Assembly: GCA_965231005.1 (NCBI GenBank)
Contig: OZ246405.1
Location: 167,204-231,203, forward strand
Source of the DNA: an uncultured Gammaproteobacteria bacterium
Lineage (GTDB): Bacteria; Patescibacteriota; Patescibacteriia; Magasanikbacterales; UBA922
Length of the DNA stretch: 64,000 bases
Direction of reading: 5' to 3'
In this document: piece by piece, positions 26,556 to 62,773 of the stretch
Numbering within the stretch: the stretch's first letter is position 1
Layout of the letters: each line of letters starts with the position of its first letter
Translations under genes and position numbers: made by a program
Notes under the pieces: model-generated
Told to the model about the DNA's origin: nothing
Seen by the model: the letters and a program-made list of their open reading frames with translations, nothing else
The model's database searches: none

Positions 26556-26564
26556 CATCACTTT

Positions 26565-33614: not shown

Positions 33615-33643
33615 AGACTATCAAAAAAAATACATCACGTCAA
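33615..33643 (-). promoter_or_regulatory. Internal promoter for the UPRT-like gene
   Basis: TTGACG, 17-bp spacer, TAGTCT. Confidence 0.4.
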
Positions 33644-33653
33644 CGTATTCCTT

Positions 33654-33691
33654 AAAACAGAAAACCTCCACCCGACACTGTCGAATGGAGG
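33654..33691 (-). terminator. Attenuator-like hairpin between the MTAP-like and UPRT-like genes
   Basis: Minus strand CCTCCATTCGACA-gtg-TCGGGTGGAGG followed by TTTTCTGTTTT. Confidence 0.45.
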
Positions 33692-33721
33692 CTTCCTCCT
33701 TGTTGAGTTCTTGTGTTATGC

Positions 33722-34720: not shown

Positions 34721-34802
34721 GTTGCCCTCCCAGCAGCATTTGCTGCAAATGAGCGTTCAAGTTCTTTAGACACAAAAAAAGCGTCCTAAACGACTGTAGC
34801 CG

Positions 34803-34831
34803 AGATTTAGATAAATGTCAACATTATTGAA
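34803..34831 (-). promoter_or_regulatory. Promoter for the MTAP-like gene
   Basis: TTGACA, 17-bp spacer, TACAGT. SD is GGGAGGG. Confidence 0.5.
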
Positions 34832-34838
34832 AAAGAAA

Positions 34839-34882
34839 AAGCCCCGTGCATAAACGCCGTGGCTCTTCCTCCTTGATTCTGT
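34839..34882 (-). terminator. Repeated 44-bp terminator module, copy 2
   Basis: GAAAAAGAAAAAGCCCCGTGCATAAACGCCGTGGCTCTTCCTCC. Confidence 0.5.
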
Positions 34883-34887
34883 AATTG

Positions 34888-36666
34888 TTATGCTGCAATG
34901 AGATCTGCTACTGTGACTGGCTTTGGCTCGCCAGGAGCAAGCAGCTTATGCCACTTACGCTCTATAGCTTCAGTCCAAGAAAAAATAAGCGGACACCCTT
35001 CTTCACTCGAGGCTCTAACTCCGATGACTAGACCGTCCTGCCTCATCCGAGAAAGAAACAGATCCAGTGCCAGTCTGGTCGGGAATTCTTTGGTCGGTCC
35101 GACAAACTCCTCTTCGAAATCACTTGCGAGAAAGTCTTTTCCTTCTGACCAGATGAAAATGAGCATCCTGCGGAACTCAACAAGTTCCTTGGGGTTCAGC
35201 TTGATGCAATGACTTATAACGTGTCGGACTTGGTGCTGCGGAAAATGCGGAAGACCTGGCAGCTTTTCTGCGAGCTTTGCTGTCCATGAGTAGGACTTAA
35301 CTTTTCTTTCGTTTTGTCTCACGTCTACTGACGTAAGGAATCCATACTCACAAGCCATATCAATGGATCTCTCCAGACTGACCACGGTTTTGAATTCCTT
35401 ATCCTCTCCAACCAAGTAGTCTTTGACATCACCTAGTGTGAACGGAAGTCCACACGAGCAGATGTACATAAGCCGGAGACGGGTAAGCCATGAATCGTAA
35501 TAGACTGTGTACTCAGGCAAAAGCCAGTTCGCAAGTTTTTGAACAAGTCTAGACTTTGTTTCGCCTTGCGAGCGAAAACTATCAAGCACATGTCCGTACA
35601 TCTTACGAGCTTTCTTCGTCCAATAGTAACGAAATGTACTGGAGTAGTTTTGTGCTTTCTTCGTTGTGACCATCCCACGTCTCTTCAGGAGATTGGTGAA
35701 ATTCTTGAGCTGGCTAAAGGTTCGGAACATCTTGTCCGGACCGACAACACAGTTAGCAATACCACGACGGAGAAATGGATTCCCGTACGAAGCCAAAAAG
35801 AGAAAGAGTCCTCGTCGGTACACCTGAGCTTCTGGCCCACCATGTACCAAATCTGAGTAAACATCGTCTCTGAGGCTTGCAGTGAGAATATCCCACGTCT
35901 CTCTTGAACTGAGCAGTGCTGCAAATGTTTCTAAGAGCTTGTTCTTTCCTGCTTCGGTCCAATCATATGTGGCCCTGGTCGAACTTTGAACAACTTCAAG
36001 CGAGCCATCGTAGACCATAAAATCAAGAAGCTCTCGGACAGGATGAGGGCCAATGAATTCGTCCCTGGTGCCAAAGAAAAATGTCTTGATTTCGTGACCG
36101 AAAAACCGGAGACCGAGCGTTCGAAGGAACACCACTGCTTGCTTCTGCTCAAGAGAAAGAGCGTTGAATGCATCTTCTCGAGCAGCTCTGTTTGCAAGTT
36201 CTGTTCTTCTTTGATTTCGCTCCCGCCTCTCACGAAGCCTTTCTCGGGCGAGAAATCGCTGACGAGCCCTTTCTTGTTCCTTCAGTTCAGCACGTGTAAG
36301 TCGACGCCTTTCTGGACGGCTTGATCTTGTCCGAACCTGACGTATACGCTTGCGCACCACCTTTGCTGGCTCAGGCTTTGACTGAGCGACAAAGTCAGCA
36401 TATCGCTGGAATTCACCTTCTTCCCAACTAGGAACCACGCGAGTGAAAGAGAAGAAGAACTCACGTCCTTTGTTCCGCGTCCCAATCCTACTCGCAAGCA
36501 TCTTCCCAGTTCCAGAATTTCTCAGTAAATGGGTTACAACATCGTCTTCGCACTCAAACGGACATCCGTCATCTTTGACGTGCGCGACCACAAACGACAG
36601 AGGAAATTCTTTCATCCCTCTGGTCAGCAGCCACACCCAGTGCAAATATGTAATTTGCCTTTGCAT
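34888..36666 (-). CDS. GC-rich hypothetical 592-aa protein with an Arg-rich coiled segment (island E, gene 3)
   Basis: Start at MQRQITYLH with SD GGAGGTG. No domain recognised. Confidence 0.55.
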   Translation of the reverse strand: MQRQITYLHWVWLLTRGMKEFPLSFVVAHVKDDGCPFECEDDVVTHLLRNSGTGKMLASRIGTRNKGREFFFSFTRVVPSWEEGEFQRYADFVAQSKPEPAKVVRKRIRQVRTRSSRPERRRLTRAELKEQERARQRFLARERLRERRERNQRRTELANRAAREDAFNALSLEQKQAVVFLRTLGLRFFGHEIKTFFFGTRDEFIGPHPVRELLDFMVYDGSLEVVQSSTRATYDWTEAGKNKLLETFAALLSSRETWDILTASLRDDVYSDLVHGGPEAQVYRRGLFLFLASYGNPFLRRGIANCVVGPDKMFRTFSQLKNFTNLLKRRGMVTTKKAQNYSSTFRYYWTKKARKMYGHVLDSFRSQGETKSRLVQKLANWLLPEYTVYYDSWLTRLRLMYICSCGLPFTLGDVKDYLVGEDKEFKTVVSLERSIDMACEYGFLTSVDVRQNERKVKSYSWTAKLAEKLPGLPHFPQHQVRHVISHCIKLNPKELVEFRRMLIFIWSEGKDFLASDFEEEFVGPTKEFPTRLALDLFLSRMRQDGLVIGVRASSEEGCPLIFSWTEAIERKWHKLLAPGEPKPVTVADLIAA

Positions 36667-36712
36667 GATCCACCTCCAATAGGATGGTTGGTTAATGTAG
36701 AGAGCAAGATAA

Positions 36713-36741
36713 AAATTACCAGAAAAATTGATAGTGGTCAA
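36713..36741 (-). promoter_or_regulatory. Candidate internal promoter for gene 3
   Basis: TTGACC, 17-bp spacer, TAATTT. Preceded by the hairpin CTCCCCCGAC/GTCGGAGGAG at 36769-36790. Confidence 0.35.
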
Positions 36742-36841
36742 CCTTTGATACTCTCACAAAGTTGAAACTCCCCCGACGATGTCGGAGGAGTGTCTTGTTG
36801 ACCAACCGCCGTCAAATGACAGAGATTGATACTTGAATTTT

Positions 36842-37300
36842 TCAGCTTGAATTAATTGGCTGATTTACCAACCAATCATAATGACCGCGACTGATGCGAA
36901 CGAACATCGGATTGTTTGAACGAGTTCGCCAACTGGCGTAAGCGATAGCACTTCTTCTTGTCTTGAATGGACAGTCTGGACTATCAATCAGGTGTTGAAG
37001 ACATGTATCTTTTATGGAAAATGGGCGGCCGCATGTCACATTCCAAAACCATTGGTCAGCTTCAGTCATTCCATCTGGCTCGGATCTGTTGAGCCAGTGA
37101 TAGAAGTTACCACCACGGATTTCGAGCAGTCTCATCCATTTGAGATCATCAATGACCTCCAGGACGATCCGCACTGACGGAAACTGCGTTCCTTTTCCAA
37201 CCTTCTCAACAACGTGCGCCGAGTGGAATCGAATTGGAAACGTTTCGCGTAGCCATTTCTGAATTTCAAGCTTTCTTGGAGTAATTGTTCTGTGTTCCAT
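36842..37300 (-). CDS. GC-rich hypothetical 152-aa protein with a possible Cys/His metal site (island E, gene 2)
   Basis: Start at MEHRTITPRK with SD AAGGGGGTG. The C/H spacing (CGRPF..CLQHLIDSPDC) hints at a metal site. Confidence 0.5.
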   Translation of the reverse strand: MEHRTITPRKLEIQKWLRETFPIRFHSAHVVEKVGKGTQFPSVRIVLEVIDDLKWMRLLEIRGGNFYHWLNRSEPDGMTEADQWFWNVTCGRPFSIKDTCLQHLIDSPDCPFKTRRSAIAYASWRTRSNNPMFVRISRGHYDWLVNQPINSS

Positions 37301-37488
37301 ACCAACACCCCCTTGTTTTGTTGGTGGTTGCAACAGACGTAGAGTCAAAGAGCGATAACTGACCCTATCATGATGCATCTTTCCTGTCAATGCAAATGAA
37401 AAAGCGCCTAGCGGTCTGTCGACCAGCTAAACGCTTTTTTTCCTTGCCCGGCTTGGAAACCGAACCCCTGTGTCTTGTGTTGTACTGA

Positions 37489-39297
37489 CTACGCTGCTTC
37501 ACTTGCATTCTGCGATTCCCGCTGCATCATGAGCTTGTCCACCCAACTACGAGGAACAACCCCAGGCACATAGCTGCCATAACGACTGTTGCGAGGTGTG
37601 TAGATGAAAACTCCTTGAACGATGAGTTCGCCCTGGACCTTTGCGTTTCTCCAGTCTTGTGAGGACATGTTAGAGCTGGTCTTTGCACGGAGAGCCTTGC
37701 AGTCTTCACTTCTGAACAGTTGTCCATCACTTGCAAGGAATATCTCCAAACCTCGATTGTAGCCCATTGGAGGGAGCCGGATGTACTCACGCGTCCAAAA
37801 GCCTTTGTACCAGACTGCGCCGTCTTCGCGGACTGTACCATCCGTTAGCTCAGTTGATGTAGCAGCTCGCTGTTCATAAAGTTCGTCGACCCACGAACGC
37901 AAAACCACTCCCGGTGTGTAGATTCCTCCACGTTTCCCTTCTTTCGAAGCGTATGAGTATGCTGCATCGAGCACACCACCCTGCTGTACAGCACTACGCC
38001 ACTGAGGGTAACTCATGGGAGGACTGATGACCTTGAGAAATTCCTTGATTGCCGATGACGGAAATGGTTGTCCGTCACTTTTGAGGAACATCTTCCTGAC
38101 TCGATCTTGAGCAAATGGACGAAGACCTGGAATCTCATCCATCACCCAAAAACCCCTGTACAGAACTGCACCATCTTCGCGGGCTGTACCGTCCTTCAGT
38201 TCAGTTGATGCTTTCTCGTCAGGCTTGTCTTCGGCCTGTTCTGGTTCTGCACCTTCTTCTTCGCTCGATTCATCATCAGCTTCGCTAGTTGCTGGCTCAG
38301 AATCTTCTGCTGCTGGTTCGTCCTCGACCTCTTCAGTCTCATCTGGATCTGCAGCTTCAGGTTCGATGGGTTCATCCGCATCTTGGATTTCAGGCTGAGA
38401 ATCTTCAGCTTGCGCCTGCTCAGTTTGATCTGCGGAATCAGCATCCGAATGAACCGGACCCTCACCCCAACCTGGTGGCGGACTTCCTTCCTGCCCGATC
38501 GGTGCAGCAAAAACCTTTGCAGCTCGTGCTGCAGCGGCAGCTTCTCGTGCTCTGACTTCTGCCTGAGCTTTCTCAGCAAGCGCAGCCCAGTTTCTGGAAC
38601 GGACAGACCAATCAACAGATCCAACCACCTCTACCATCCCATCTTCTCGGAACGTTGGCCTTGACCGGGGAAGAGTTGAAAGAGGCCATGAAGGAGCTGC
38701 TGGCTTTGCAGCTTGCTCACCCTCAACAGGCGTTTCGTCGTCAGCGTTTTGCTCTGGATGCAGCAGTGCAATGTTCAACTTCCAGCGACCTCTGCCAGCA
38801 TCGAGCAGCAGTTGGCATGCCACCAAATCAGAGAAAACAACATCACTTCCCTTCAGCCACTCAATGAGCCTGAAACGAGCAAAAACAGCACTGTTTGGAT
38901 CCTTGCCACCCTCGATCAGCTTGATTTCAATGAGCCGAGCTGCCTCAAAGTCAGCTTCCTCAGGATCTCGAAAAACGATTTTCTTCTTGATCGGTGGCGC
39001 TTTTTTACGACGCTTTGAAGATTTCGACTCCCCACCAGAAGGACGTTGAGAAAGGCAAGCACGCCCAGAATCTGTAAAGTACAGATGACCACTAGTGAGA
39101 CGCTTCAGGAACCCATGCCTGGTAGCATCTGAGATGAATGCAGCGAGATCGTCTTTTGCAATCCGCCCACTTACACGGAGAGCTTCTGGGAGAAGTCGCG
39201 CTCCATGCAATGTTTTGCTCATCCGTCCTAGTACTGTTGCCACCTCAGCAGCAACTGTTTTTTGACTCTTGACCATAGCCTTCTTTTTGCGAGCCAT
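37489..39297 (-). CDS. GC-rich 602-aa protein with a basic N-terminal region, a roughly 90-aa acidic low-complexity linker and two tandem roughly 110-aa C-terminal repeats (island E, gene 1)
   Basis: SD is GAGGAGGTCATC then ATG. The two repeat units begin ELKDGTAREDGAVLYRGFW and ELTDGTVREDGAVWYKGFW. Confidence 0.6.
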   Translation of the reverse strand: MARKKKAMVKSQKTVAAEVATVLGRMSKTLHGARLLPEALRVSGRIAKDDLAAFISDATRHGFLKRLTSGHLYFTDSGRACLSQRPSGGESKSSKRRKKAPPIKKKIVFRDPEEADFEAARLIEIKLIEGGKDPNSAVFARFRLIEWLKGSDVVFSDLVACQLLLDAGRGRWKLNIALLHPEQNADDETPVEGEQAAKPAAPSWPLSTLPRSRPTFREDGMVEVVGSVDWSVRSRNWAALAEKAQAEVRAREAAAAARAAKVFAAPIGQEGSPPPGWGEGPVHSDADSADQTEQAQAEDSQPEIQDADEPIEPEAADPDETEEVEDEPAAEDSEPATSEADDESSEEEGAEPEQAEDKPDEKASTELKDGTAREDGAVLYRGFWVMDEIPGLRPFAQDRVRKMFLKSDGQPFPSSAIKEFLKVISPPMSYPQWRSAVQQGGVLDAAYSYASKEGKRGGIYTPGVVLRSWVDELYEQRAATSTELTDGTVREDGAVWYKGFWTREYIRLPPMGYNRGLEIFLASDGQLFRSEDCKALRAKTSSNMSSQDWRNAKVQGELIVQGVFIYTPRNSRYGSYVPGVVPRSWVDKLMMQRESQNASEAA

Positions 39298-39515
39298 GAT
39301 GACCTCCTCTGATCCCTAGTCTGTCCCAAAATGGACAAAAACTGGTTTCAAAAATATTTTCTGCGTCTATTACAGATGGTATATAGTCCAAAATTCATTT
39401 TTGAGACCAGTTCTATATAAAACGTAACAAGAAATAGCATGCTCGTCAATTATTGCCGACAAAAATTCACCATGCTATAATCTGCTTGTATATTTAAGTC
39501 CTGACACACTATTAT

Positions 39516-50435: not shown

Positions 50436-51413
50436 ATGAAAAAAAATCTTGCAAAACTTCTCAGAGAATTTCTTGAACATTTAGAAATTGAAAAAAATCG
50501 AAGCAGCAAAACTGTTCAAAACTATACCTTCTATCTTTTTAGATTTTTAGAGTGGCATGGAGAAGATAAAGGGGCAAAAAGTATTGATGGTGAGGCTGTA
50601 CGCCAATATCGTCTTTGGTTAAATAGGCTTGTTGATGTTCACGGGGAACCCTTGAAAAAAAATACACAAAATTATCATCTTATTGCATTGCGTTCTTTTC
50701 TAAAATACCTAGCAAAACGTGATATCACGAGTTTGGCAGCAGAAAAAATTGAATTAATGAAAATGCCAGACCGCCAAGTAACATTTTTAGAAGGCACAGA
50801 TCTTAGTCGCCTACTCGAAGCACCAGTAGAAGAATTAAAAAATACAAAAGACCAAAAAAACGCATCAACAAATAGACTGATCGGTCTTAGAGACAAATGT
50901 ATTTTAGAAATGTTGTTTTCAACCGGTCTACGTGTTTCAGAATTGGCAAAATTAAAAATTGAAGATGTAAATGTTGAAAAGGATGAATTTACTATTCAAG
51001 GGAAGGGAAAGAAAACAAGAATTGTATTTTTATCTGAGCAGGCAAAATACTGGTTAAAAGAATACACAAAAGCAAGAAAAGACATGAATCCTCATTTATT
51101 TGTATCTCATGACAAGAACAAAAAGGCAAGAGACAAAAAAGCAGAAACTCTCGAGTCAATTAGTCCAAGGACGATTCAACGAATTGTTCAAAAATATGCA
51201 AAAATAGCTGGAATTACAAAACCAGTAACTCCTCATACCTTGCGACATTCATTTGCAACAGATCTTTTGCAAAATGGAGCAGATATTAGGAGTGTTCAGA
51301 GCATGCTAGGTCATTCTTCTATAACAACAACACAAATTTACACCCATATTACAGATAAGGAGCTTCGAAAGATACACAAAAAATTCCATGGGAAAAAGCG
51401 AAGTGGCGATTGA
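50436..51413 (+). CDS. Tyrosine site-specific recombinase, XerC/XerD-like
   Basis: Catalytic R..K..HxxR..Y (LRHSFATDLL, GHSSITTTQIYTH). AT-rich. Confidence 0.8.
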   Translation: MKKNLAKLLREFLEHLEIEKNRSSKTVQNYTFYLFRFLEWHGEDKGAKSIDGEAVRQYRLWLNRLVDVHGEPLKKNTQNYHLIALRSFLKYLAKRDITSLAAEKIELMKMPDRQVTFLEGTDLSRLLEAPVEELKNTKDQKNASTNRLIGLRDKCILEMLFSTGLRVSELAKLKIEDVNVEKDEFTIQGKGKKTRIVFLSEQAKYWLKEYTKARKDMNPHLFVSHDKNKKARDKKAETLESISPRTIQRIVQKYAKIAGITKPVTPHTLRHSFATDLLQNGADIRSVQSMLGHSSITTTQIYTHITDKELRKIHKKFHGKKRSGD

Positions 51414-51450: not shown

Positions 51451-51522
51451 GCCCTGATAGTTCAATGGATAGAACACCGGCCTTCTAAGCCGGGAATGTA
51501 GGTTCGATCCCTACTCGGGGCA
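51451..51522 (+). tRNA. tRNA-Arg (anticodon TCT)
   Basis: Hand-folded cloverleaf with a 7-bp acceptor stem containing one G-U pair, D-arm GTTC/GAAC, anticodon loop CTTCTAA and T-arm GTAGG-TTCGATC-CCTAC. Confidence 0.8.
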
Positions 51523-51562
51523 CAATACAAACACCAACCTTTAACTATTAATATAAAAAGGT

Positions 51563-52367: not shown

Positions 52368-52898
52368 TTATTTTATGATCCAAGGACTTACATCACTTTC
52401 AGATAAGTACTCCCCACTTTCTCCACAAAAAGATCCAGAAAACTCACAATAAGAACCGCTGAGTTTATTATCTTCTGTCCATTCAAAATTGATTGGATTA
52501 ATATCCTTACCAACAACATCATATGTCTTTCTGTCTGCAACAGAATATATTTTTACATACACACTTTCCCACCCATCAGCAAGCATTGCAACAAACTTTT
52601 TATCTGGTGAAAATTCAGCTTTTGAATATCTGTACTGAGAAAAATGAGAACTTACATCTCCATCAACCTCCTTTTTCTGCTCGGCTACTAGCGTAGATTG
52701 ACCTTCCTCGTCTGCAATATAAACATCACCGTTCTTTATATGAACCTGACTTATCTTTTTTTGAGACTGATCTTTTTGCTCAACTATGTTGCTGCCGTCA
52801 TTATAATCACCTTCAGGCGTAACATGTAACTTCACAGACGCGCAACCGGCACCAAATAAAATTGTTATAAAGCAAAGAAAAATTATTCTTTTATACAT
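52368..52898 (-). CDS. Lipoprotein
   Basis: Lipobox LFGAGC after a hydrophobic signal. About 176 aa. Confidence 0.6.
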   Translation of the reverse strand: MYKRIIFLCFITILFGAGCASVKLHVTPEGDYNDGSNIVEQKDQSQKKISQVHIKNGDVYIADEEGQSTLVAEQKKEVDGDVSSHFSQYRYSKAEFSPDKKFVAMLADGWESVYVKIYSVADRKTYDVVGKDINPINFEWTEDNKLSGSYCEFSGSFCGESGEYLSESDVSPWIIK

Positions 52899-52970: not shown

Positions 52971-52999
52971 TTGACACAGGTGGCAGATTGAAGTATAAT
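52971..52999 (+). promoter_or_regulatory. Promoter of tRNA-His
   Basis: TTGACA, 17-bp spacer, TATAAT. Confidence 0.6.
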
Positions 53000-53023: not shown

Positions 53024-53097
53024 GGTGGCTATGGTGTAGTGGTAACACAGAGGCTTGTGGTGCCTTTATCACGGGTTCGATCCCCGTTAGCCACCCC
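53024..53097 (+). tRNA. tRNA-His (anticodon GTG) with an encoded G-1
   Basis: Hand-folded. G-1 pairs with discriminator C. Acceptor GTGGCTA/TAGCCAC. Anticodon loop TTGTGGT. T-arm ACGGG-TTCGATC-CCCGT. Confidence 0.8.
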
Positions 53098-53116
53098 TTT
53101 GGGGGTTTTTTATTTG
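53089..53116 (+). repeat. tRNA-His 3' end plus terminator, repeat copy i
   Basis: AGCCACCCCTTTGGGGGTTTTTTATTTG. An identical 28-mer recurs at 54081-54108 and a diverged copy at 53569-53606. Confidence 0.8.
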
Positions 53117-53120
53117 GATC

Positions 53121-53149
53121 AAAAAAACACCAGAGTTGGTGTTCTTTTG
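53121..53149. repeat. Cassette-boundary hairpin module 1
   Basis: AAAAAAACACCA-gagt-TGGTGTTCTTTTG. Confidence 0.75.
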
Positions 53150-53182
53150 TTATAGGAAAAGCCGTATAGGTCTAGTCATGAT

Positions 53183-53500
53183 CTACCCCCCTGCCTCAAA
53201 TATCGTTGCCAGATCTTCAATTTCCTCTCTTGTCCATCCATCATAATATTCGCTCCAAAAAGGATGTTCTTTATCCTCAAGCATCGCTCTATAGTCGTAG
53301 GACAGACTCTTAAACGAGACTGGGGATGGGTTTTCAGACTCCAGCACACTACGCTCTTTCTCAAATTCACGCTGGAATATTTTCATCACCCTGTCTGTAG
53401 GTGCCAACTGCTTGGCTTTTTCACTGACCCTGTTTAGTATCTCCTCACCCATCTCCTTTACATACGCAATTTCCCTATATGGGCTCAATTCACTATCCAT
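53183..53500 (-). CDS. Hypothetical 105-aa acidic protein (cassette F6)
   Basis: ORF between boundary modules. Its promoter TTGTTC, 16-bp spacer, TATAAT lies at 53528-53555. Confidence 0.5.
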   Translation of the reverse strand: MDSELSPYREIAYVKEMGEEILNRVSEKAKQLAPTDRVMKIFQREFEKERSVLESENPSPVSFKSLSYDYRAMLEDKEHPFWSEYYDGWTREEIEDLATIFEAGG

Positions 53501-53568
53501 ATGAAAATATTAATAATAATCTCCCTCATTATAGCACCAATCAGAGAATGAACAAAGTTCTAATACCG

Positions 53569-53606
53569 CCCACTAACCCACCCCAGTGGGGGTTTCTTTT
53601 TTTACG
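53569..53606 (+). repeat. Diverged copy ii of the tRNA-His 3' end plus terminator module
   Basis: CCCACTAACCCACCCCAGTGGGGGTTTCTTTTTTTACG compared with CCCACTGAGCCACCCCTTTGGGGGTTTTTTATTTGCAC. Confidence 0.6.
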
Positions 53607-53653
53607 CTAATTTTCTTGTTTTTGTTGAGGGAAATATCTTGGCTCTAACCAAA

Positions 53654-53683
53654 CAAAAAAACACCATGGTTGGTGTTCTTTTG
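53654..53683. repeat. Cassette-boundary hairpin module 2
   Basis: AAAAAAACACCA-tggt-TGGTGTTCTTTTG, followed by a second hairpin GCGGTTT..AAACCGC. Confidence 0.75.
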
Positions 53684-53740
53684 TGCTCGCGGTTTTTTGG
53701 GAAACCGCGAAAACCTTTGGCCTTTCCTCTCACGTAAGGA

Positions 53741-53974
53741 TTACCGACGAGAGCAGGAATCGCGAGGCAAGGAAAGCACTGTTCCCCGGCCACCGCACCG
53801 AGAACAGCGGGATCTTGCAGCGCGCCTGCTGCACCCTCCTCCGCCACATGCGGGACATGTCGGGCAGGTCATCGTGAACCCGTGCCCTCCACATCTTGTG
53901 CACGTTGAAGAGAACGTAACTTCGCCACTTCCATCACACCTGGGGCAAGTGACTCTAATTTCCTTCTCATTCAT
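53741..53974 (-). CDS. GC-rich 77-aa DnaJ-type zinc-finger miniprotein with four CxxCxGxG repeats (cassette F5)
   Basis: CPRCDGSG, CTRCGGHG, CPTCPACGGGG, CSRCGGRG. SD is AAGGAGG. The promoter TTGACA, 17-bp spacer, TATATA lies at 54008-54036. Confidence 0.6.
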   Translation of the reverse strand: MNEKEIRVTCPRCDGSGEVTFSSTCTRCGGHGFTMTCPTCPACGGGGCSRRAARSRCSRCGGRGTVLSLPRDSCSRR

Positions 53975-54071
53975 ACAACCCTCCTTGGTTGTTGAAACAC
54001 ACATTCATATATAGCATGGCAGTTCTTTCTTGTCAACTGTACAACACTCTTTATATCGAGGATACTAATAT

Positions 54072-54108
54072 CCCCCACTGAGCCACCCCTTTGGGGGTTT
54101 TTTATTTG
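54072..54108 (+). repeat. tRNA-His 3' end plus terminator, repeat copy iii (identical 28-mer)
   Basis: CCCCCACTGAGCCACCCCTTTGGGGGTTTTTTATTTG. Confidence 0.8.
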
Positions 54109-54163
54109 CACTGTGTCTCGCCGAAGCCCTGTCTGCCGACAGGCAGGTTTAGTGAAGGCGGAT

Positions 54164-54192
54164 CAAAAAAACACCATTACTGGTGTTCTTTT
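54164..54192. repeat. Cassette-boundary hairpin module 3
   Basis: AAAAAAACACCA-ttac-TGGTGTTCTTTTG. Confidence 0.75.
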
Positions 54193-54303
54193 GTTATCGG
54201 GCGATTCGTATTGAATCACCCATCTCCTTCAGCCCGATATAGCTCGGGCCAGGCCTCTGCAAAAAGCAGGAGTGAAAGGTGGCTTTCTCAGCCACTACGT
54301 TTT

Positions 54304-55476
54304 TCATCGGCTTTTCCGACGGCGTCTATTCCTTGGGCTAGGTTTTCTTCGCGGTCTTCTCAGTCGGATAAAGGACAAACCCTCGAGTGCACGAATGGCA
54401 GACTGCTCTTTGGATTTTTCCGCACTGGATCCAACACCAATCCCAATTCGCTGCTCTCCGACGAACACTTGTCCGACGAACCAAGTCTGCGAACCTGACC
54501 TTTGCTCAACCTCATAGGTTGGCAACACGCCGAGCTGCTCTAGTAACCTGCGCTGCAATTTCTCGACTGCGCTGTTTGGGGTCCCTTCAGCATACTTCTG
54601 GACCTCGAGCTCGACTTGTGGAGTAGAGGCCGGAGGTGGTTCAGGTTCAACGTTACTTGGAGCCCGAGACGTTGTTGCTGGAGAAGTTCGTTTGTTTGTG
54701 GAAGATAGGGTTCGTGAAGGTTCGCTGCGAGGAGCTGTTGGCTCAACTCGAGTGAACAACTGTGGATGCATTCTGGCGAGCTTTATCAGTGCGCGCCTTG
54801 CAGCTTCTTCCATGGACGCAGGCTTAGTACTGCCCATGCCAGATGCGAAATCCTGTCCATCGATGAGAGCAACAGACCGGACTCTGCCGGTTGGAATCTT
54901 CCCGTTCTGCTTCACAGTCCTCATGCCAGGCTTTTTGCCAAGCCGAGTAACCAGAAGCCGAAACCTCACAAAAGGAGTGTTGAGATGTCTCTGTCTGACT
55001 TCTGGGAGCCGAGAACAAACAAGTCTGTGAACAAACGACCTTGCTTCTCCATACCCGACATCAAGGTTAATCGCCTGAATGATTGCTTCCATTGCACAAG
55101 CAACCTTCATGTAGCTGCGACCAATACGGAGGCTCTTCTTTTGGTACACAGTCCCGCGGATGTCGAGATGCAAGCCAAGACTGATTCCAATATCAGCAAG
55201 ACATCGGTTGCTAACCAGCTCTCGGCAGTATCGAGTCAGTTCGACTAACGTCTCCCCTGGTGCTCGATGGCTGACAAGATATCCTCTGACAATACCTTCG
55301 AGAAGTCCGTCACCGATCCACTCGAATTCTCTGTTGTCGCCGAGCTCGCTTGCTTCGGGATTCTCCCAGACAAATTCCTTGGTAGTCAGTGCAACGAGAA
55401 GAACTCGCTTGTCTTCGAACGTCACACCGATCTTTTTCTCAACTCGCGAAACAAGTTCGCGGTCAGATTGGTGCAT
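54304..55476 (-). CDS. GC-rich RNase III-like protein with two C-terminal dsRBDs, a Pro/Ser/Thr-rich linker and an Arg-rich tail (cassette F4)
   Basis: The signature NREFEWIGDGLLEGIV parallels ERLEFLGDSILS. Two dsRBD C-terminal halves are present (GSTKPASMEEAARRALIKL and GSSAEKSKEQSAIRALEGL). The second catalytic Asp appears replaced by Cys in hand alignment (ACAMEAI versus ADTVEAL). The promoter lies at 55565-55593. Confidence 0.7.
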   Translation of the reverse strand: MHQSDRELVSRVEKKIGVTFEDKRVLLVALTTKEFVWENPEASELGDNREFEWIGDGLLEGIVRGYLVSHRAPGETLVELTRYCRELVSNRCLADIGISLGLHLDIRGTVYQKKSLRIGRSYMKVACAMEAIIQAINLDVGYGEARSFVHRLVCSRLPEVRQRHLNTPFVRFRLLVTRLGKKPGMRTVKQNGKIPTGRVRSVALIDGQDFASGMGSTKPASMEEAARRALIKLARMHPQLFTRVEPTAPRSEPSRTLSSTNKRTSPATTSRAPSNVEPEPPPASTPQVELEVQKYAEGTPNSAVEKLQRRLLEQLGVLPTYEVEQRSGSQTWFVGQVFVGEQRIGIGVGSSAEKSKEQSAIRALEGLSFIRLRRPRRKPSPRNRRRRKSR

Positions 55477-55617
55477 GTGCACCTCCCAATATGCTATGAA
55501 GCTCTACCCTTCTTGTGCGAAGAGGAGCTTAGTTTTTATATGCCCATGTTTTGTGGGACGTATAAACATATCATAACACAGTTTTTTTGTCAATAAAGCG
55601 AACTTTTTAATGAAATA

Positions 55618-55649
55618 TCAAAAAAACACCATTTTCTGGTGTTCTTTTG
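55618..55649. repeat. Cassette-boundary hairpin module 4
   Basis: ATCAAAAAAACACCA-tttt-CTGGTGTTCTTTTG. Confidence 0.75.
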
Positions 55650-55800
55650 ATTGGCCCCAACAATGATGTTCGTCATGTCAGAGCGGTGTTTGGTCAACTG
55701 CAAGCAGCTGCCTAAGTAGGGAGCATTCGTCAACGAGTGACAAATGATTCCAAGGGCCAAAGGCCAGAATCTGGAGGACTATGATTTTTTTTGCTGGCGA

Positions 55801-56214
55801 CTAGCTCAGCAGTTCGCGGATGCTCGTGCTAAGCGACTCGCTCAGGTGTTGATCGACAACGAGCTTGCCATCGACCTTGTTCATGATGACGACATGGGTC
55901 ATGCCATTCGAGGACATTTCTGCCTCGAGCAACAGCTGATACATGTCGATGAGTTTGACAGGAATCTTCTTGAGCATCTCTGGGTTTCTCGCAAACGATT
56001 GAATCGACACGATGTTGCCAGTGAGATCAGGAAAAAGCGCGTCTCCATTCTCGTCCCACAGAGGGGAATCTTCAGGTTCGCTCACAGTGACCACTGCGAC
56101 GCGTCCATCGGACCAAATCCTTCTCAGCTTCTCCTCCTCTCGTCGAGTGAAGGAGCATCCGAAATGATCTGCAAGAACCCAACAGGCCCTATCATACTTA
56201 TCATACCTATCCAT
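55801..56214 (-). CDS. GC-rich hypothetical 137-aa protein (cassette F3)
   Basis: The promoter TTGACA, 16-bp spacer, TATATT is at 56248-56275. The leader carries the inverted repeat GTCCA-caaaa-TGGAC. SD is AAGGAGGTGAAAG. Confidence 0.55.
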   Translation of the reverse strand: MDRYDKYDRACWVLADHFGCSFTRREEEKLRRIWSDGRVAVVTVSEPEDSPLWDENGDALFPDLTGNIVSIQSFARNPEMLKKIPVKLIDMYQLLLEAEMSSNGMTHVVIMNKVDGKLVVDQHLSESLSTSIRELLS

Positions 56215-56328
56215 CTTTCACCTCCTTGTCCATTTTGTGGACGCTTTAATATAGCATAAAAAAAGCTTTTTGTCAAGGGGGAATCCTGAATATTTATTTA
56301 AAATAAAGCATTTTTTTGCAAATTTAAT

Positions 56329-56347
56329 ATCAAAAAAACACCATTTT
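56329..56347. repeat. Cassette-boundary module 5 (truncated, 5' arm only)
   Basis: ATCAAAAAAACACCATTTT then AACAATGATG. The 3' arm present in module 4 is deleted. Confidence 0.6.
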
Positions 56348-56398
56348 AACAATGATGCCTTTTTGGTTTAGGGCAATGCTCCAAGATTGCCCCTCCCC

Positions 56399-56761
56399 CT
56401 ATGAATGTTCTTGTTCGAGTCGACGGAGAATCCGCAGCGCAGACTCTGCGAATTCGTGATCCTGGTCAAACCGATCTGGTATGTTTCGCTGTGTGTTACC
56501 GATAGACGTACGAGAAAACTGTGGGAACGCCACATGAGTCGCTGGAACATCCATGTGGCTGAACCAGTAAAGAAAGTAGATGCACAGCTTTTGCGCTCGA
56601 CTCAGTGGCTCACCACTCTTGTGAAAACCGATCTTGTCAAGATCGACTCCGCATACGTCAGCACAAACTGCAATCACACGCTCTGTTTTGTATCGCCGCC
56701 GCTCCATTGCAGCACTTCGCAGCACCTGTCCGGGTGGATCTGTACTATAGATGCACCTCAT
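56399..56761 (-). CDS. GC-rich 120-aa protein with a possible DnaA-C-terminal-like HTH (cassette F2)
   Basis: Translationally coupled to F1 through an ATGA overlap. LSRAQKLCIYFLYWFS..HVAFPQFSRTSIGNTQ loosely parallels the DnaA domain IV pattern. Confidence 0.45.
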   Translation of the reverse strand: MRCIYSTDPPGQVLRSAAMERRRYKTERVIAVCADVCGVDLDKIGFHKSGEPLSRAQKLCIYFLYWFSHMDVPATHVAFPQFSRTSIGNTQRNIPDRFDQDHEFAESALRILRRLEQEHS

Positions 56762-57222
56762 GCCAGGTGTGGACGCGTCTTGCGCGCACAGGCCAGGAAG
56801 CAGCGCGCAATCGGACCGTGCCAGTACGAGTAGAGGATGAACTGCAGTGGCTGGCTCGTGTCAGGAAACATCCGAGTGATCATCCTTCCTCCAGGCCGAT
56901 CAAACCGATCACGCTCTGGCTCGACACGAACAGGAATCCGCGGGTGATCCACGCGGATCCATGCCGGACCAGCTTGTGTGTGGATCGAAGCGCAGAAAGG
57001 CCCGTCGGTCGAACCTTCCTTGACCATGCAGCCAGTGACGTACTCTCCGGTCTCGAGAAGATGTCGAGCCTGCTCATCGGTGATGGTGTGCTGCACCACT
57101 CGCCGTCCTTCTTCGTCGCGCGGCACCGTACGTGCGGCCGGCGTGCGATCCCACAGACCGTCGTGCCACTTGCGATCACGACGCCTGCCAAAACCAATAT
57201 CTCTGCCGAGTCCCATAGTCAT
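56758..57222 (-). CDS. GC-rich hypothetical 154-aa protein (cassette F1)
   Basis: Start at MTMGLGRD with SD GGAGGTCATC then ATG, identical to the island E gene 1 SD. The promoter TTGACA, 17-bp spacer, TATAAC lies at 57257-57285. Confidence 0.5.
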   Translation of the reverse strand: MTMGLGRDIGFGRRRDRKWHDGLWDRTPAARTVPRDEEGRRVVQHTITDEQARHLLETGEYVTGCMVKEGSTDGPFCASIHTQAGPAWIRVDHPRIPVRVEPERDRFDRPGGRMITRMFPDTSQPLQFILYSYWHGPIARCFLACARKTRPHLA

Positions 57223-57346
57223 GATGACCTCCGTGTTGTAGGAACGTTGCCATAGGGTTATACATGAAAAAGATGAAGATGTCAATTAGGAAAACAAAAA
57301 AACCTTTTTTAAGGTTTACAATATATTTAAATATGAATTTTTGAAT

Positions 57347-57392
57347 GCGCCTTTTAAGCCTTTAAGGCCTCTACGGCTTTTAAAGCCTTTTT
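57347..57392. repeat. 9-bp tandem array x5 at the outer edge of island F
   Basis: GCGCCTTTT AAGCCTTTA AGGCCTCTA CGGCTTTTA AAGCCTTTT. Confidence 0.65.
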
Positions 57393-57517
57393 ATCGTCTC
57401 CTCAACCACATCCCCGGAAACCCGGGGCTGTGATATTTGGAAGGATAGACATACGTCCATCTATTCCCCCTTAATAGAGCAAAAAGACTATATGAGTGGC
57501 TTGCTTCTACAGCAAAA

Positions 57518-59894: not shown

Positions 59895-60613
59895 ATCCGT
59901 TCAAAGCAAGAGCTGGAACACGAAATGACATCGACGCAATCATTGCGATTGAAAAACAGGCTTTCAAAGACTCGGGAGCACCAACATTCGGCCGCAAAGA
60001 GATTGAATCTTGGTTCGATGTTCACCCCGAAGGTGTCCTTTTGGCAGAGAAAGACGGAAGAGTCGTCGCATTTACGTACATGCAACTGATTCACCTAGAT
60101 CCAGAAAACCTGCCCCCATTCAAAACGCATGATGAGCTGTCTGACAATAGCTCGAGTCGAGCAACGCATACGCCTGATGGCAACTGTTTTCACGGATTCA
60201 CTCTTGATTCGATTAGTCCTGGTGCTGGACTTTTTTTGCTTGAAAAGGCAAAAGAGTTTGTTAAACAAAAAGGAAAACCCTATTTGTTTGGCACATCCCG
60301 AATCGTTGGGTTCAACAATGTCATGCGTGCTGTAGCACTCATGAACCCAGAAATCACGCTGACAAAAGAGCTTGAACAGAGCATTGCCGTATGGTATGCT
60401 AGAAAAACTGCAGCGATGGTAAATGGATGGATCGGGAAACTCATACCAGACACGCCCAACACAGCAGACCTCGTCCTCCCTGAACTCGACTCTCCAGATC
60501 CAATCCTTGGGTTCTACCTCATGAATGAGTGTGAAATGCACTCGTTTCTACCAGACTTCATTCATGATCCGCCCAGCCGTGGCCATGCCTTCCTCTGCCT
60601 TTGGCATATTTAG
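59891..60613 (+). CDS. GNAT-family N-acetyltransferase-like protein
   Basis: ATGA overlap with the preceding gene. GNAT-like core. GC above the host level. Confidence 0.5.
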   Translation: MNPFKARAGTRNDIDAIIAIEKQAFKDSGAPTFGRKEIESWFDVHPEGVLLAEKDGRVVAFTYMQLIHLDPENLPPFKTHDELSDNSSSRATHTPDGNCFHGFTLDSISPGAGLFLLEKAKEFVKQKGKPYLFGTSRIVGFNNVMRAVALMNPEITLTKELEQSIAVWYARKTAAMVNGWIGKLIPDTPNTADLVLPELDSPDPILGFYLMNECEMHSFLPDFIHDPPSRGHAFLCLWHI

Positions 60614-60625
60614 GCAAAAACATCT

Positions 60626-62773
60626 TTGTGTCCCTATATGTTCATCTTTACCTACACGGCCGCAACCTTAGCACTCATTTGCACTGGGTTCGCGGCTGTT
60701 GTCTTTTATAAAAAGAAACAGGATAAGTTAGCTCAATTTCTTGTCCTTATTATGATATTCACTGCTTGTTGGCTTTCTAGCAATAGTTTGGCAGATATAG
60801 CAAAGACAGAATCTTCGCTTATATTATTTAGCGGATTAGCAGTGATTTCTGGATTTTTTCTACATAGCTTTTATCTGTGCTTTGTAGAATTCTTCATTGA
60901 TAAATCACTCTCTTTACGAAAGAAAATTTTTTATGTTGCACCAAGTATTCTTGCTGTGCCATTCGCGTTTTCCAAATATAGTACAGCGGCTATATATTTT
61001 CCAGAAGGACAACCTGCGCAAATTGAACCTGGAATACTTTACTACTTCTTTATTCTTTTTAGTTGGTTTGTATTTATATATAGTATAAATCGACTCAGAA
61101 TTGAACATAAAAAATCAAATTACCAACGAAAAGCACAAATTGCCTATATCCAACTTGGCTTCCTTATCATGGCACTTTTTGGTCAATTGTTTTCTGTCAT
61201 ACTCCCACTATTTGGAACAATCCATCTTTTTAACCTTGGACCACAATTTTCACTTTTCTTAATAGTACTCATCGCATACGCAATCTTTAAACACAAACTG
61301 TTTGATATTAAAATTGTTATCCAGTTGGGTATTATTTATTCAATACTTTTGGCTGGAATTGTCTCGGTCTATCTTGCAGTACTCTATGTGTTACTCTTCC
61401 TTCTAAAAGAAACCGATAGTCATATTATTTTCTTAATCAGCTCGCTTATCACGACTATCATTGGTATTTTTGGTGTCCCTCCAATTCAATTGTATTTCCA
61501 AAAAATTACAGATAAAATTTTCTTTAAAAACAAATACAATTATTCAAAATCTTTACGCAGATTAAGTGAAATTGTTTCTAGAAATATTAATCTAAAAGAC
61601 ATCCTTGCAAAGGCAGAAGATGCTTTGAAAGATATATTCAAGGTTGAAAACGTTTGTTATCTTCTTATCAGTGAAAATGCAAAATTGATTAAACATGAAA
61701 AATTCAAAAAGATAGACAAAAAACATGCAAAATATCTTGCAAAGGCATTGAGTGGAAAAAAGAAATATATCATTACATCTGAAATCCCGTATATCCTAAA
61801 AAACAATAAAAGATTAGGAGAAGAACAGACCGAAGCTTTGGACAAAATTGAAAAACTCTGCAAATCAAGAAAGCTTGAAATTGTTATTCCGCTTTTTGCA
61901 AATGACAAGTTGATCGGTGCATTTTCTTTATCGAAAAAATTATCTGGAGATGCATATACTGACAGAGATATTCACCTTTTGCAAACATTTTCTCACCAAG
62001 CTGCGCTTGCACTTGAAAAATCCAAATTGTATGAACAAGTTATTGACCATACAAAGAATCTTGAAAGACGTGTTTTAGAAAGGACCTCAGAGATTAAAGA
62101 ATTGCAGGAAAATCAGGCACAAGTTATGATGGATATTTCACATGGATTGCAAACACCACTGACAATTGTCAAAGGAGAACTAGATCTTCTTCAAAATAGA
62201 ATCCAAGATACACATGTTTTTGGGCGCTTAGAAAAATCTATTGATCGCATTTCAAAATTTATTGCTGCAATGCTTAATTTGTCTCGTCTTGAAACAGAAG
62301 CAAACACCGACAAAAAAGAAAAAATAAATATAAGTCTTCTTTTGGAAGAATTGCTCGAATACTTTACAACATTGGCAGAACAAAAAAGTATTTCAATAAC
62401 CTCTGAAGTCGCAAAAAATATCTTTGTGCTTGGCTCACGCAACAGACTAGAAGAACTTATTACAAATCTAGTCAGCAATGCTGTAAAATATATTGCGAAT
62501 GAAAGGAAAATTACAGTAACACTTGAAAAAGAAGAAAAAAATGCTGTCTTGCGTATTTCTGACACGGGAATTGGTATTCATAAAGAAGAATTGCCAAACC
62601 TATTTAAACGTTACTACCGATCAGAAGAAGAGCATAATACTATCCAAGGAACAGGATTAGGGCTTGCAATTTGTAATAAGATAGTCCAAAATCATCATGG
62701 TCGTATTTCTATTACAAGTACTCTTGGAGAGGGCACAACCGTAGAAGTCATGCTTCCTCTTATAAAGCGATAA
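60626..62773 (+). CDS. Sensor histidine kinase with a polytopic N-terminal membrane domain
   Basis: About 8 transmembrane helices, a GAF-like segment, HisKA H-box MMDISHGLQTPLT and HATPase_c boxes (ISDTGIGI, GTGLGLAI). Confidence 0.8.
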   Translation: MCPYMFIFTYTAATLALICTGFAAVVFYKKKQDKLAQFLVLIMIFTACWLSSNSLADIAKTESSLILFSGLAVISGFFLHSFYLCFVEFFIDKSLSLRKKIFYVAPSILAVPFAFSKYSTAAIYFPEGQPAQIEPGILYYFFILFSWFVFIYSINRLRIEHKKSNYQRKAQIAYIQLGFLIMALFGQLFSVILPLFGTIHLFNLGPQFSLFLIVLIAYAIFKHKLFDIKIVIQLGIIYSILLAGIVSVYLAVLYVLLFLLKETDSHIIFLISSLITTIIGIFGVPPIQLYFQKITDKIFFKNKYNYSKSLRRLSEIVSRNINLKDILAKAEDALKDIFKVENVCYLLISENAKLIKHEKFKKIDKKHAKYLAKALSGKKKYIITSEIPYILKNNKRLGEEQTEALDKIEKLCKSRKLEIVIPLFANDKLIGAFSLSKKLSGDAYTDRDIHLLQTFSHQAALALEKSKLYEQVIDHTKNLERRVLERTSEIKELQENQAQVMMDISHGLQTPLTIVKGELDLLQNRIQDTHVFGRLEKSIDRISKFIAAMLNLSRLETEANTDKKEKINISLLLEELLEYFTTLAEQKSISITSEVAKNIFVLGSRNRLEELITNLVSNAVKYIANERKITVTLEKEEKNAVLRISDTGIGIHKEELPNLFKRYYRSEEEHNTIQGTGLGLAICNKIVQNHHGRISITSTLGEGTTVEVMLPLIKR

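Follow-up and report, generated by a model that had tools for sequence, protein, structure and literature searches.

Tandem expression cassettes at the 3' end of a tRNA-His gene in a Magasanikbacterales genome, and a possible route of serial insertion

The 64,000-nt stretch analysed here, hereafter the window (contig OZ246405.1, positions 167,204 to 231,203 of the forward strand, assembly GCA_965231005.1, placed in the Magasanikbacterales by GTDB), carries downstream of a tRNA-His gene an array of five minus-strand transcription units, comprising six open reading frames (ORFs), that extends from 53183 to 57222. The boundaries nearest the tRNA gene are marked by displaced copies of its 3' end, each unit has a promoter of its own and ends in a conserved hairpin, the cargo is of foreign composition, and there is no integrase gene in or next to the array. 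The same junction modules recur with unrelated genes in related genomes, and in further relatives the site is empty. The reading that we favour, with moderate confidence, is that miniature integrase-less cassettes of 0.34–1.7 kb were accreted serially and site-specifically at the tRNA-His 3' end.

To our knowledge, bacteria of the candidate phyla radiation (CPR; Patescibacteria) have tiny genomes with few recognized mobile elements, and how they acquire accessory genes is poorly understood. The window locus and its counterparts on four other contigs represent a compact and recurrent format for gene gain: single foreign, expression-ready cassettes that share promoter and terminator modules, use tRNA-derived sites and stack without a resident integrase. 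Moreover, the combination of a pseudo-tRNA half, the adjoining core repeat and the ATCAAAAAAACACCA hairpin provides a practical marker for hypervariable islands in CPR metagenome bins.

Displaced tRNA ends at the tRNA-His locus and its relatives

The putative integration target, tRNA-His(GTG), lies on the plus strand at 53025–53097 according to ARAGORN (53025–53095 according to Rfam), downstream of a perfect sigma-70-type promoter found by promoter scan (TTGACA-17-TATAAT; 52971–52999, plus strand), and would constitute the attB/attL side of the attachment (att) site. The exact 28-mer AGCCACCCCTTTGGGGGTTTTTTATTTG begins at 53089 and again at 54081, with none expected in shuffled sequence; it is made up of 7 nt of the tRNA-His acceptor 3' strand and 21 nt of the plus-strand terminator of the tRNA. 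A diverged copy, AACCCACCCCAGTGGGGGTTTCTTTTTTTA, lies at 53575–53605. An initial sequence-only reading of this DNA had identified the repeat as the tRNA 3' end with its terminator and had noted a diverged third copy, and in both respects it was correct.

All three copies of this core lie on the plus strand. Core 0 (53089–53116) comprises the last 7 nt of tRNA-His and the terminator CCCCTTTGGGGG-T6, and forms an attL-like junction. At junction 1 (53554–53605), a pseudo tRNA-His 3' half, the P arm AAAGTTCTAATACCGCCCACTAACCCA, precedes the diverged core CCCCAGTGGGGGTTTCTTTTTTTA, whereas at junction 2 (54060–54108) the P arm reads GGATACTAATATCCCCCACTG and is followed by the second exact copy of the 28-mer. 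A tentative relic of the original tRNA end, or attR, lies at the distal edge (57404–57441, plus strand; CAACCACATCCCCGGAAACCCGGGGCTGTGATATTTGG); the similarity is weak and was judged by eye, by setting it beside GCCACCCCAGTGGGGATCTGTAAAATAT from an empty site in a relative, L049. When aligned on the core, the displaced copies read (A/T)AGTTCTAATACCnnCCACTAnCCCA / CCCC-loop-GGGGG / TTTCTTTTTTTA, and the genuine tRNA-His has GGGTTCGATCCCCGTTAGCCA / CCCC-loop-GGGGG / TTTTTTATTT; to the left of the core, each displaced copy is a degenerate tRNA-His T-arm and acceptor half. Derived states, GTTCTAATACCnCCCACTAnCCCA, are common to the displaced copies across units and genomes, where the local tRNA has GGTTCGATCCCCGTTAGCCA; because the displaced copies share these states with each other, they show the pattern expected of element-borne P arms on a shared core.

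Related loci were reached via the neighbouring gene for an SPFH protein, whose closest named homologues are in Candidatus Magasanikbacteria; the labels L004 to L055 denote the contigs and fragments compared with the window. The conserved gene block has the order Xer–tRNA-Arg–SPFH–tRNA-His, of which tRNA-Arg(TCT) occupies 51451–51523 on the plus strand. In L028 (SPFH 91% identical) and L036 (SPFH 86% identical), the same synteny is followed by the same junction modules, defined as a pseudo tRNA-His 3' half, a core (CCCC-loop-GGGG-T run) and the hairpin, but the genes between them are unrelated to those of the window. Cores are found at 10914 (the tRNA), 12456 and 13271 in L028, with hairpins at 12481, 13299 and 13933, and at 4076 (the tRNA), 4589, 5212, 5548 and 6349 in L036, together with six hairpin copies that include variants changed on both arms. 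The junction-1 P arm AAAGTTCTAATACCGCCCACTAACCCA itself recurs in both (at 13244 in L028; at 4563, 5521 and 6322 in L036). Two further cores and a hairpin are present in L004, a metagenome-assembled genome fragment from GTDB that does not reach a tRNA. The sequence of the core loop tracks the host: all L028 copies have GCTG, and the window and L036 have TTT, a pattern that fits a putative requirement for identity in the exchanged region. An all-against-all comparison of the ORFs found no cargo common to the arrays, only translated junction modules.

The array design is also combined with another tRNA: L019 carries an array at tRNA-Asp(GTC), with the same promoter module and hairpin and with three displaced pseudo-tRNA-Asp halves, GTTCGAACCAAGTCCCATCTGTCCCGCAAAATTAA, at intervals of 1.2 and 1.7 kb. 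Since this array uses the same modules, the cassette backbone is evidently paired with att sites that correspond to more than one tRNA. Direct repeats of the target gene 3' end therefore flank units in the window (cores at 53089, 53575 and 54081), in L028, L036 and L004, and, in their tRNA-Asp form, in L019; the 12 units that are bounded by cores on both sides (two in the window, four in L036, two in L028, one in L004 and three in L019) measure 336–1688 bp.

Occupied and empty states of the site both occur among the relatives. In L049 (SPFH 79% and Xer 70% identical), tRNA-His is followed, after ~95 nt, by a gene for a 522-aa membrane protein, the orthologue of which (518 aa) follows the 3.1-kb array in L028, and in L045 tRNA-His lies directly before a chemotaxis operon. 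A possibility raised with the sequence-only reading, that relatives have the same genes without the repeats, does not hold, as they carry the modules with different cargo or an empty tRNA-His. Because relatives carry other units or none at this position, the locus appears to be a hotspot where genes accumulate, much as in an integron, at a tRNA attachment site.

One comparison bears on the order of arrival. The spacer, or P' arm, of window unit E2, which encodes c2, lies at 53606–53653 (plus strand) and, together with its hairpin, is ~90% identical to the arm of L036 unit 1; both units encode CxxCxGxG zinc-finger proteins, the ORF DNA of which is barely alignable. In L036, this unit abuts the real tRNA (position 1), whereas in the window E2 abuts the P arm of unit E1 (position 2). 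Judged from these positions, the arrangement is consistent with a later entry of E1, beside the tRNA.

The locus is not an artefact of assembly, given that a second, independent assembly (European Nucleotide Archive ERZ930065) is 99.96% identical and that the right junction of the array is crossed by Logan contigs. Regarding the records themselves, L004, L005, L007, L010 and L011 (GTDB CAYPPF01, CAZCAB01 and CAZTEU01) are titled 'uncultured Gammaproteobacteria bacterium' and hold Magasanikbacteria-type loci, such that these titles are probably wrong. The compared part of L011, in which both the junction modules and the gene for the 518-aa protein lie, agrees with the L028 array.

Hairpins, promoters and cargo of the units

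The hairpin CAAAAAAACACCA-N4/5-TGGTGTTCTTTTG starts at 53120, 53654, 54164 and 55619 (10 half-site matches against 0.44 expected). A fifth, at 56331–56365, is diverged and pairs via G·U wobbles on the minus-strand RNA; all five hairpins of the sequence-only reading were located, although the last is full rather than truncated, as had been thought. These five copies fall within 3.3 kb, and there is no full or half copy elsewhere in the window; a lone half-site with one mismatch, at 47083, belongs to no hairpin. On the minus strand, the hairpins constitute T1 of c1 (53120–53150), T2 of c2 (53654–53684), T3 of c3 (54164–54194), T4 of c4 (55617–55651), which lies at a boundary without a tRNA-end copy, and T5 of the c5 operon (56331–56365). 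A second hairpin in the 3' untranslated region of c2 (53686–53709, minus strand; CGCGGTTTCCCAAAAAACCGCG in the mRNA) is common to L036 units at 4647 and 7375.

The minus-strand RNA folds into a 13–15-bp stem with a U7 tract after it; for the hairpin-bearing 3' regions, the folds have minimum free energies of −17.7 to −58.5 kcal/mol (z-scores −3.0 to −6.9), and the sites were also called as terminators by the scan tool. Across 20 hairpin copies from nine loci, 92% of positions pair on the minus-strand RNA versus 81% on the plus strand. One conserved G·U aside, the substitutions comprise 13 G·U, valid on the minus-strand RNA only, versus one A·C, and there is one double compensatory change. Variation is too low for covariation to reach significance against a shuffle control; this strand asymmetry was used as the argument in place of covariation statistics. 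The hairpin thus has the stable stem-loop, U tract and RNA-level pairing of a rho-independent terminator, and it is a predicted intrinsic terminator of the cassette mRNAs rather than a recombination site, since it is only on the minus-strand RNA that the substitutions leave pairing intact. On the same ground, a Xer/dif-like site of 11-6-11 form was rejected as improbable.

Two earlier statements about the hairpin consequently need revision. It had been described as lying always within 50 bp of the core, but the spacings are 4, about 55 and 55 nt; and it had been taken for a boundary element between cassettes, whereas it is the predicted mRNA terminator of each unit and occurs also at loci not shown to be tRNA-His arrays. 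Near-identical hairpins terminate tRNA genes in unrelated bacteria and, in a Parcubacterium, a 5S/23S rRNA operon. Scans for the exact pattern gave single matches only (15 GTDB genomes, nine metagenomes and two viral contigs), among which are related arrays (L004, L011 and L019) or the same terminator at other loci; the hairpin was rejected as a widespread module, the remaining single matches being either fortuitous or ordinary terminators of rRNA operons and tRNA genes. The empty L049 site has a terminator of similar form, A7-TCACTC...GAGTGA-T6, between tRNA-His and the next gene, so the hairpin may derive from the ancestral attB region.

All of the cassettes lie on the minus strand, as had been stated from the sequence. 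The further claim, that each has its own promoter and Shine–Dalgarno (SD) sequence, stands in its simple form for four of the five units, which have TTGACA-N17-TATAxx and a GGAGG-type SD; c1 has instead an extended −10, TGCTATAAT, with a weak −35 (53525–53556, minus strand), and a GAGGGAG sequence ~20 nt from its ATG. The promoters of c3 (TTGACA-17-TATGTT, 55565–55593) and c4 (TTGACA-17-TATATT, 56248–56276) were called by the scan tool, and those of c2 (TTGACA-N17-TATATA, 54008–54036), c5 (TTGACA-N17-TATAAC, 57257–57285) and c1 were read from the sequence; all are on the minus strand. Beyond the hexamers, a promoter module that includes the spacer, cccTTGACAAAAGGGGTTTTTTGTGnTATAaT, is common to window c4, L036 U5, L004, L010 and L019.

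The G+C content at third codon positions (GC3) of the cassette ORFs is 0.47–0.63, versus 0.23–0.28 for the Xer, SPFH, lipoprotein and response regulator genes, and the coding parts of the island have a GC content of 50–60% in a genome of ~35%. Close homologues of the cassette ORFs that were searched were not found in public protein collections. For the five cassette ORFs on record there are no 90%-identity cluster mates from other genomes, and the exact c2 sequence is not in the collection; the sole such mate of c1 (53183–53500, 105 aa, GC3 0.47, no family match) is its own variant in the second assembly of the locus. The product of c2 (53741–54004, 87 aa) is a CxxCxGxG zinc-finger protein with weak matches to the DnaJ central domain and to anti-TRAP-like proteins.

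The largest cassette ORF, c3 (54304–55476, 390 aa), encodes a divergent RNase III domain, two double-stranded RNA-binding domains and an Arg/Pro-rich tail, and has one weak homologue (30% identity) among 5.8 billion protein clusters. It retains the RNase III signature (equivalents of E41, D45 and E117) but has Cys at the position of the catalytic Asp-114, and Arg is found at the position of Glu-38 (Escherichia coli numbering); the protein may bind rather than cut double-stranded RNA. No homologue of c4 (55801–56214, 137 aa), an ORFan, was found in the protein search. The final unit is a two-gene operon, in which c5a (56758–57222, 154 aa) and c5b (56399–56761, 120 aa) overlap by 4 nt. The sole match of c5a is with a repeat unit of P0131, a single repetitive protein of 2,495 aa that itself matches DUF6527 weakly; the E-value of 1.4e-32 sums 24 near-identical repeats, and one repeat alone is a weak match (33% identity over 52 residues). 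P0131 has ~24 near-identical repeats of ~107 aa and may be a tandem-repeat gene or an assembly artefact.

Searches of the cargo with PHROGs, PADLOC and NCBIfam revealed nothing beyond the RNase III domain of c3 and the zinc finger of c2: no defence-system or phage family was recognized with PHROGs or PADLOC, c3 matching one uncharacterized PHROG family and the other cargo none. AlphaFold single-sequence models of c4 and c5a were unusable (predicted local distance difference test scores of 52 and 35, respectively), and Rfam families in the island are limited to the tRNAs.

Several observations concern the surroundings of the array and other loci with the hairpin. A minus-strand gene for a 176-aa lipoprotein-like product of host-like composition (52368–52898) lies between the SPFH gene and the tRNA-His promoter in the window; it is without a counterpart in L028, L036 and L049, where SPFH directly precedes tRNA-His. 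In L028 (8548–9922), and also in L039, L040, L041 and L055, all relatives with 90–92% SPFH identity, an insert between Xer and tRNA-Arg that is absent from the window comprises a HigB/helix-turn-helix toxin–antitoxin pair and an ORF of 243–257 aa, and the tRNA-Arg side of the block is therefore also variable. In L010, a relative of L028 type, a tRNA gene at 3518–3790 (minus strand) is split by a group I intron (Rfam RF00028, 68 bits, 3573–3777) and is not called by ARAGORN; GC-rich cassettes with the same hairpin terminator lie just 3' of it. A different boundary repeat, 47 nt long (TTTTnCGATGAGCTGGCTGGTGTATGACGTTAGAACTAGGAT), occurs in L007 at 1746–1792, 2200–2246 and 3233–3279, with a terminator hairpin before each copy; it separates three units of 0.45–1.0 kb beside tRNA-Met/tRNA-Gly and is possibly a third kind of att module of the cassette system.

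Elsewhere in the window, GC-rich patches (47–59%) lie at 7101–7801, 18401–21001, 25101–26601, 28801–29501, 32701–39301 and 60301–60701. Several encode proteins without a Pfam match (for instance, ORFs of 602 and 592 aa at 34.9–39.3 kb), none is explained by an Rfam family, and DNA of foreign composition seems to make up about one-fifth of the window. A periodic motif, GCCTTTAAAGC / GCCTTTAnAGC, present in four to five copies with a period of ~10 bp, lies directly upstream of TTGACA promoters by other GC-rich patches (18250–18296, 19910–19947 and 21050–21110) and also at the distal edge of the tRNA-His array (57340–57392); it could be an UP-element-like or regulator-binding array tied to foreign islands.

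A route of entry and its rivals

Serial accretion, as we envisage it, would involve units with a fixed plan. Read along the plus strand, each would comprise a P' arm ending in the minus-strand terminator, one or two foreign GC-rich minus-strand ORFs, their strong sigma-70-type promoter and SD, and a P arm, presumably derived, in degenerate form, from the T-arm and acceptor 3' half of tRNA-His; it would be bounded by the core, CCACCCC-loop-GGGGG-T run, which corresponds to the tRNA 3' end and its plus-strand terminator. Entry would proceed by conservative site-specific recombination between the attP-like core of the unit (P–core–P') and the core at the tRNA-His 3' end, the products being attL (tRNA–core–P'), with the tRNA intact, and attR (P–core–older material). 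The pseudo-tRNA copy and the older units would be pushed distally with each event, leaving the newest unit next to the tRNA, and catalysis would fall to a tyrosine-type integrase acting in trans, the source of which would be a helper element, with the host Xer protein as a less likely alternative. Each junction would then present a convergent terminator pair that insulates the units, with the core stopping plus-strand read-through from the tRNA and the hairpin stopping the minus-strand cassette mRNA. The serial insertion proposed from the sequence alone is in part supported, by the other cargo at the same site in relatives and by the empty sites; only the first three boundaries have tRNA-end copies.

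As to the enzyme, the sole candidate in the window is a Xer-type tyrosine recombinase gene (50436–51413, plus strand; Pfam Phage_integrase with a SAM-like N domain), situated 1.6 kb upstream of the array, beyond tRNA-Arg and the SPFH gene. Against NCBIfam models it scores 240 bits for XerD and 238 bits for XerC, both under the cut-off, and 226.7 bits for a XerA-type model, which passes the cut-off of 220. Its N-terminal region is of the SAM-like core-binding kind only, with no arm-binding domain. Orthologues with 70–74% identity have the same position in L028, L036 and the empty-site L049; being syntenic beside occupied and empty sites, it is a conserved chromosomal gene and not an island integrase. 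Earlier inspection had singled it out as the only recombinase in the window and had found no integrase adjacent to the array, and both points are substantiated: by tblastn, there is no other tyrosine recombinase in the window or in any fetched locus, and no Xer-type homologue in the 12 core-to-core units or in any array. Moreover, the called genes include no other recombinase Pfam family in the window between ~6.6 and 19.5 kb and between 27.5 and 63.5 kb, and no recombinase Pfam family at all within the window, L028 and L036 arrays. Integration and transfer genes are accordingly absent from the units, as far as Xer-like tblastn and the Pfam listings extend.

Nor did a parent element come to light: the P-arm, core and tRNA-end patterns had no matches in viral contigs, and the whole island had none in phage and plasmid collections. 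The window contains no match to the proteobacterial, firmicute, XerS or XerH dif consensus, although the dif site of the host lineage may differ. As the only recombinase seen, and one conserved and syntenic in relatives, the Xer protein is at most a candidate trans-acting enzyme; since the att sites are tRNA-specific (His and Asp), dedicated integrases supplied in trans seem preferable to one dif-specific Xer.

A number of points weigh against serial accretion. Neither a recombinase nor a circular intermediate nor an excision scar was observed, and no population variants of the window array were found, the two assemblies being the same in structure. The loop of window core 1 is AGT, whereas those of cores 0 and 2 are TTT, which is awkward for a tyrosine recombinase that needs identity in the overlap. 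Cores are confined to the first three boundaries, and the c3/c4 and c4/c5 boundaries lack them, as do hairpins in the distal parts of the L036 and L028 arrays; units c3–c5 (54109–57300) may represent a single composite insertion of 3.2 kb, or their att copies may have been lost, and the same two options apply to the distal segments in L036 and L028. Additionally, the hairpin follows GC-rich promoter-bearing units at loci without detected tRNA-end repeats (L005, L007 and L010, in the last of which they lie downstream of the intron-bearing tRNA), so the expression backbone is not tied to this att site. Finally, the junction modules are 90% identical over ~100 bp between genomes, a degree of identity at which DNA taken up by a cell could deliver units by homologous recombination, with no site-specific enzyme required.

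This last point can be developed into a rival account, in which incoming DNA is exchanged by double crossover within the ~100-bp junction modules and arrays are resized by unequal crossing-over, no site-specific recombinase being required. It would explain why the junction modules are far more conserved than the cargo (~90% for the arm, with ORFs that are barely alignable), why promoter and hairpin modules are common to units at different loci, and why no integrase is found. Such exchange would shuffle existing cassettes, but it leaves unexplained the origin of pseudo-tRNA halves that correspond to the tRNA of the locus (tRNA-His in four genomes, tRNA-Asp in L019), and equally the exact insertion at the tRNA 3' end with the tRNA left intact, which is the signature of integrase-mediated attP/attB recombination; we consider it unlikely. 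Less probable still is that the units are remnants of integrase-bearing islands or prophages that entered tRNA-His in repeated events and later shrank by deletion to single genes. Integrase-less tandem elements are described as arising in this way (PMC5704250), tycheposon islands do hold fragmented integrases and scattered partial tRNAs (bioRxiv 10.1101/2020.12.28.424599), and the absence of att copies from c3–c5 is what decay would give. Yet all 12 core-to-core units, from five contigs, fall within 0.34–1.7 kb and none contains a detectable fragment of a Xer-like recombinase; in the units that were read closely, promoter and P arm adjoin each other directly, as do terminator and P' arm, and independent deletions would not keep ending at exactly these module edges.

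It is more doubtful again that the host Xer protein itself inserts the units, with the core, or the hairpin in its 11-6-11-like aspect, serving as a dif-like site. The Xer gene is the sole recombinase seen in the 64 kb and is syntenic with the tRNA-His hotspot in the window, L028 and L036, and integrase-less tandem arrays that exploit Xer are generally known (the CTX/TLC arrays and the pdif modules of Acinetobacter). However, its orthologue is equally present by the empty L049 site, the hairpin substitutions describe a one-strand RNA structure and not a protein-bound duplex palindrome, and the tRNA-Asp-derived core of L019 would not be served by one dif-specific enzyme; the want of a dif-like consensus in the window and of an arm-binding domain in the protein points the same way, and L004 and L019 already hint at arrays whose Xer is unlinked. 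As for the notion that nothing special is present, only ordinary duplicated terminators or an artefact of assembly, it draws on the near-identical hairpins that serve as rRNA-operon and tRNA terminators in unrelated genomes and is essentially refuted: the assemblies are independent, the hairpin is concentrated in the array, and pseudo-tRNA P arms with an occupied/empty polymorphism are not properties of terminators. The pseudo-tRNA halves and cores are array-specific, which also disposes of the earlier suggestion that the repeats might be terminators duplicated genome-wide.

Beyond serial accretion as such, the data allow a more ambitious proposal, which we hold to be possible though rather doubtful: that Magasanikbacteria and related CPR bacteria possess a dedicated cassette platform, in which foreign ORFs are fitted with lineage-specific promoter and terminator modules and a pseudo-tRNA site, and are inserted singly at tRNA 3' ends (His and Asp) by a trans-acting recombinase, possibly the neighbouring Xer. 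Such a platform would be analogous to integrons and mechanistically distinct from them, and, if it exists, would give streamlined symbionts an expression-ready library of accessory genes.

Comparison with known systems

In outcome, the array is integron-like. In common with sedentary chromosomal integrons, as generally known, it is an ordered array of same-orientation, mostly ORFan, foreign single-gene cassettes, in which lineage-specific non-coding modules flank unrelated ORFs, the newest cassette would be proximal, and a Xer-related gene lies nearby. It nevertheless lacks the defining features of that class. There is no adjacent IntI-type integrase, the Xer-type gene scoring 141 bits on the integron integrase model TIGR02249 (cut-off 265) and higher on Xer models. 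No attI or attC site was recognized, albeit without a covariance-model search, and the hairpin 3' of each cassette has the U tail of an RNA terminator; attachment would instead be to a tRNA 3' end. Moreover, each cassette has its own promoter and terminator in place of promoterless cassettes read from a common Pc, and the cassettes point towards the anchor, not away from a common promoter. The two systems meet in a shared problem: the origin of integron cassettes, in which unrelated ORFs are likewise combined with lineage-specific non-coding modules, is unsolved, and the present arrays offer a second, independent system in which to study it.

Other comparisons, made from general knowledge, are more distant. 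Integrative mobile elements exploiting Xer (IMEX) and Acinetobacter pdif modules are small, integrase-less, moved by host Xer and able to form arrays, but they are bounded by dif-like XerC/XerD sites, whereas here the core is derived from a tRNA and the hairpin behaves as an RNA terminator. Phage morons are autonomous promoter–gene–terminator units of atypical composition inserted between genes; they reside inside prophages and have no att repeats, whereas no phage genes are present here, the uncharacterized PHROG family matched by c3 aside.

Tycheposons of Prochlorococcus (bioRxiv 10.1101/2020.12.28.424599) resemble the present islands in the scattering of partial tRNAs and in occurring in a streamlined host with few classical mobile elements. 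They differ in having their own tyrosine recombinase and replication module, where we see single expression cassettes with shared promoter and terminator modules; a tyrosine recombinase with a replication or packaging module beside the tRNA was not found in the window, L028 or L036 arrays. The parallel is closer with cis-mobilizable elements (CIMEs), for which tandem accretion of integrase-less elements at the 3' end of the target gene is documented in the ICESt1/St3 family of Streptococcus (PMC5704250). These, too, are integrase-less units that keep att-type repeats and lie in tandem at the 3' end of one gene, with a copy of that end at each junction. They are, however, kilobases-long decay products of integrative and conjugative or integrative and mobilizable elements that depend on a neighbouring functional element, whereas the units described here measure 0.34–1.7 kb, carry one or two genes in a uniform promoter–ORF–terminator format, have no visible parent element and are found in a CPR host. 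The earlier assertion that no capture mechanism of this kind had been described is too strong, as tandem accretion of integrase-less elements is known from both CIMEs and tycheposon islands; what is not described in PMC5704250, or in the literature searched, is a format so small, uniform and ready for expression, in which one or two ORFs are combined with shared promoter and terminator modules, with no parent element, in a CPR host. Overall, we conclude that the closest mechanistic match to the array is probably tandem accretion at tRNA 3' ends, including that of CIMEs (PMC5704250).

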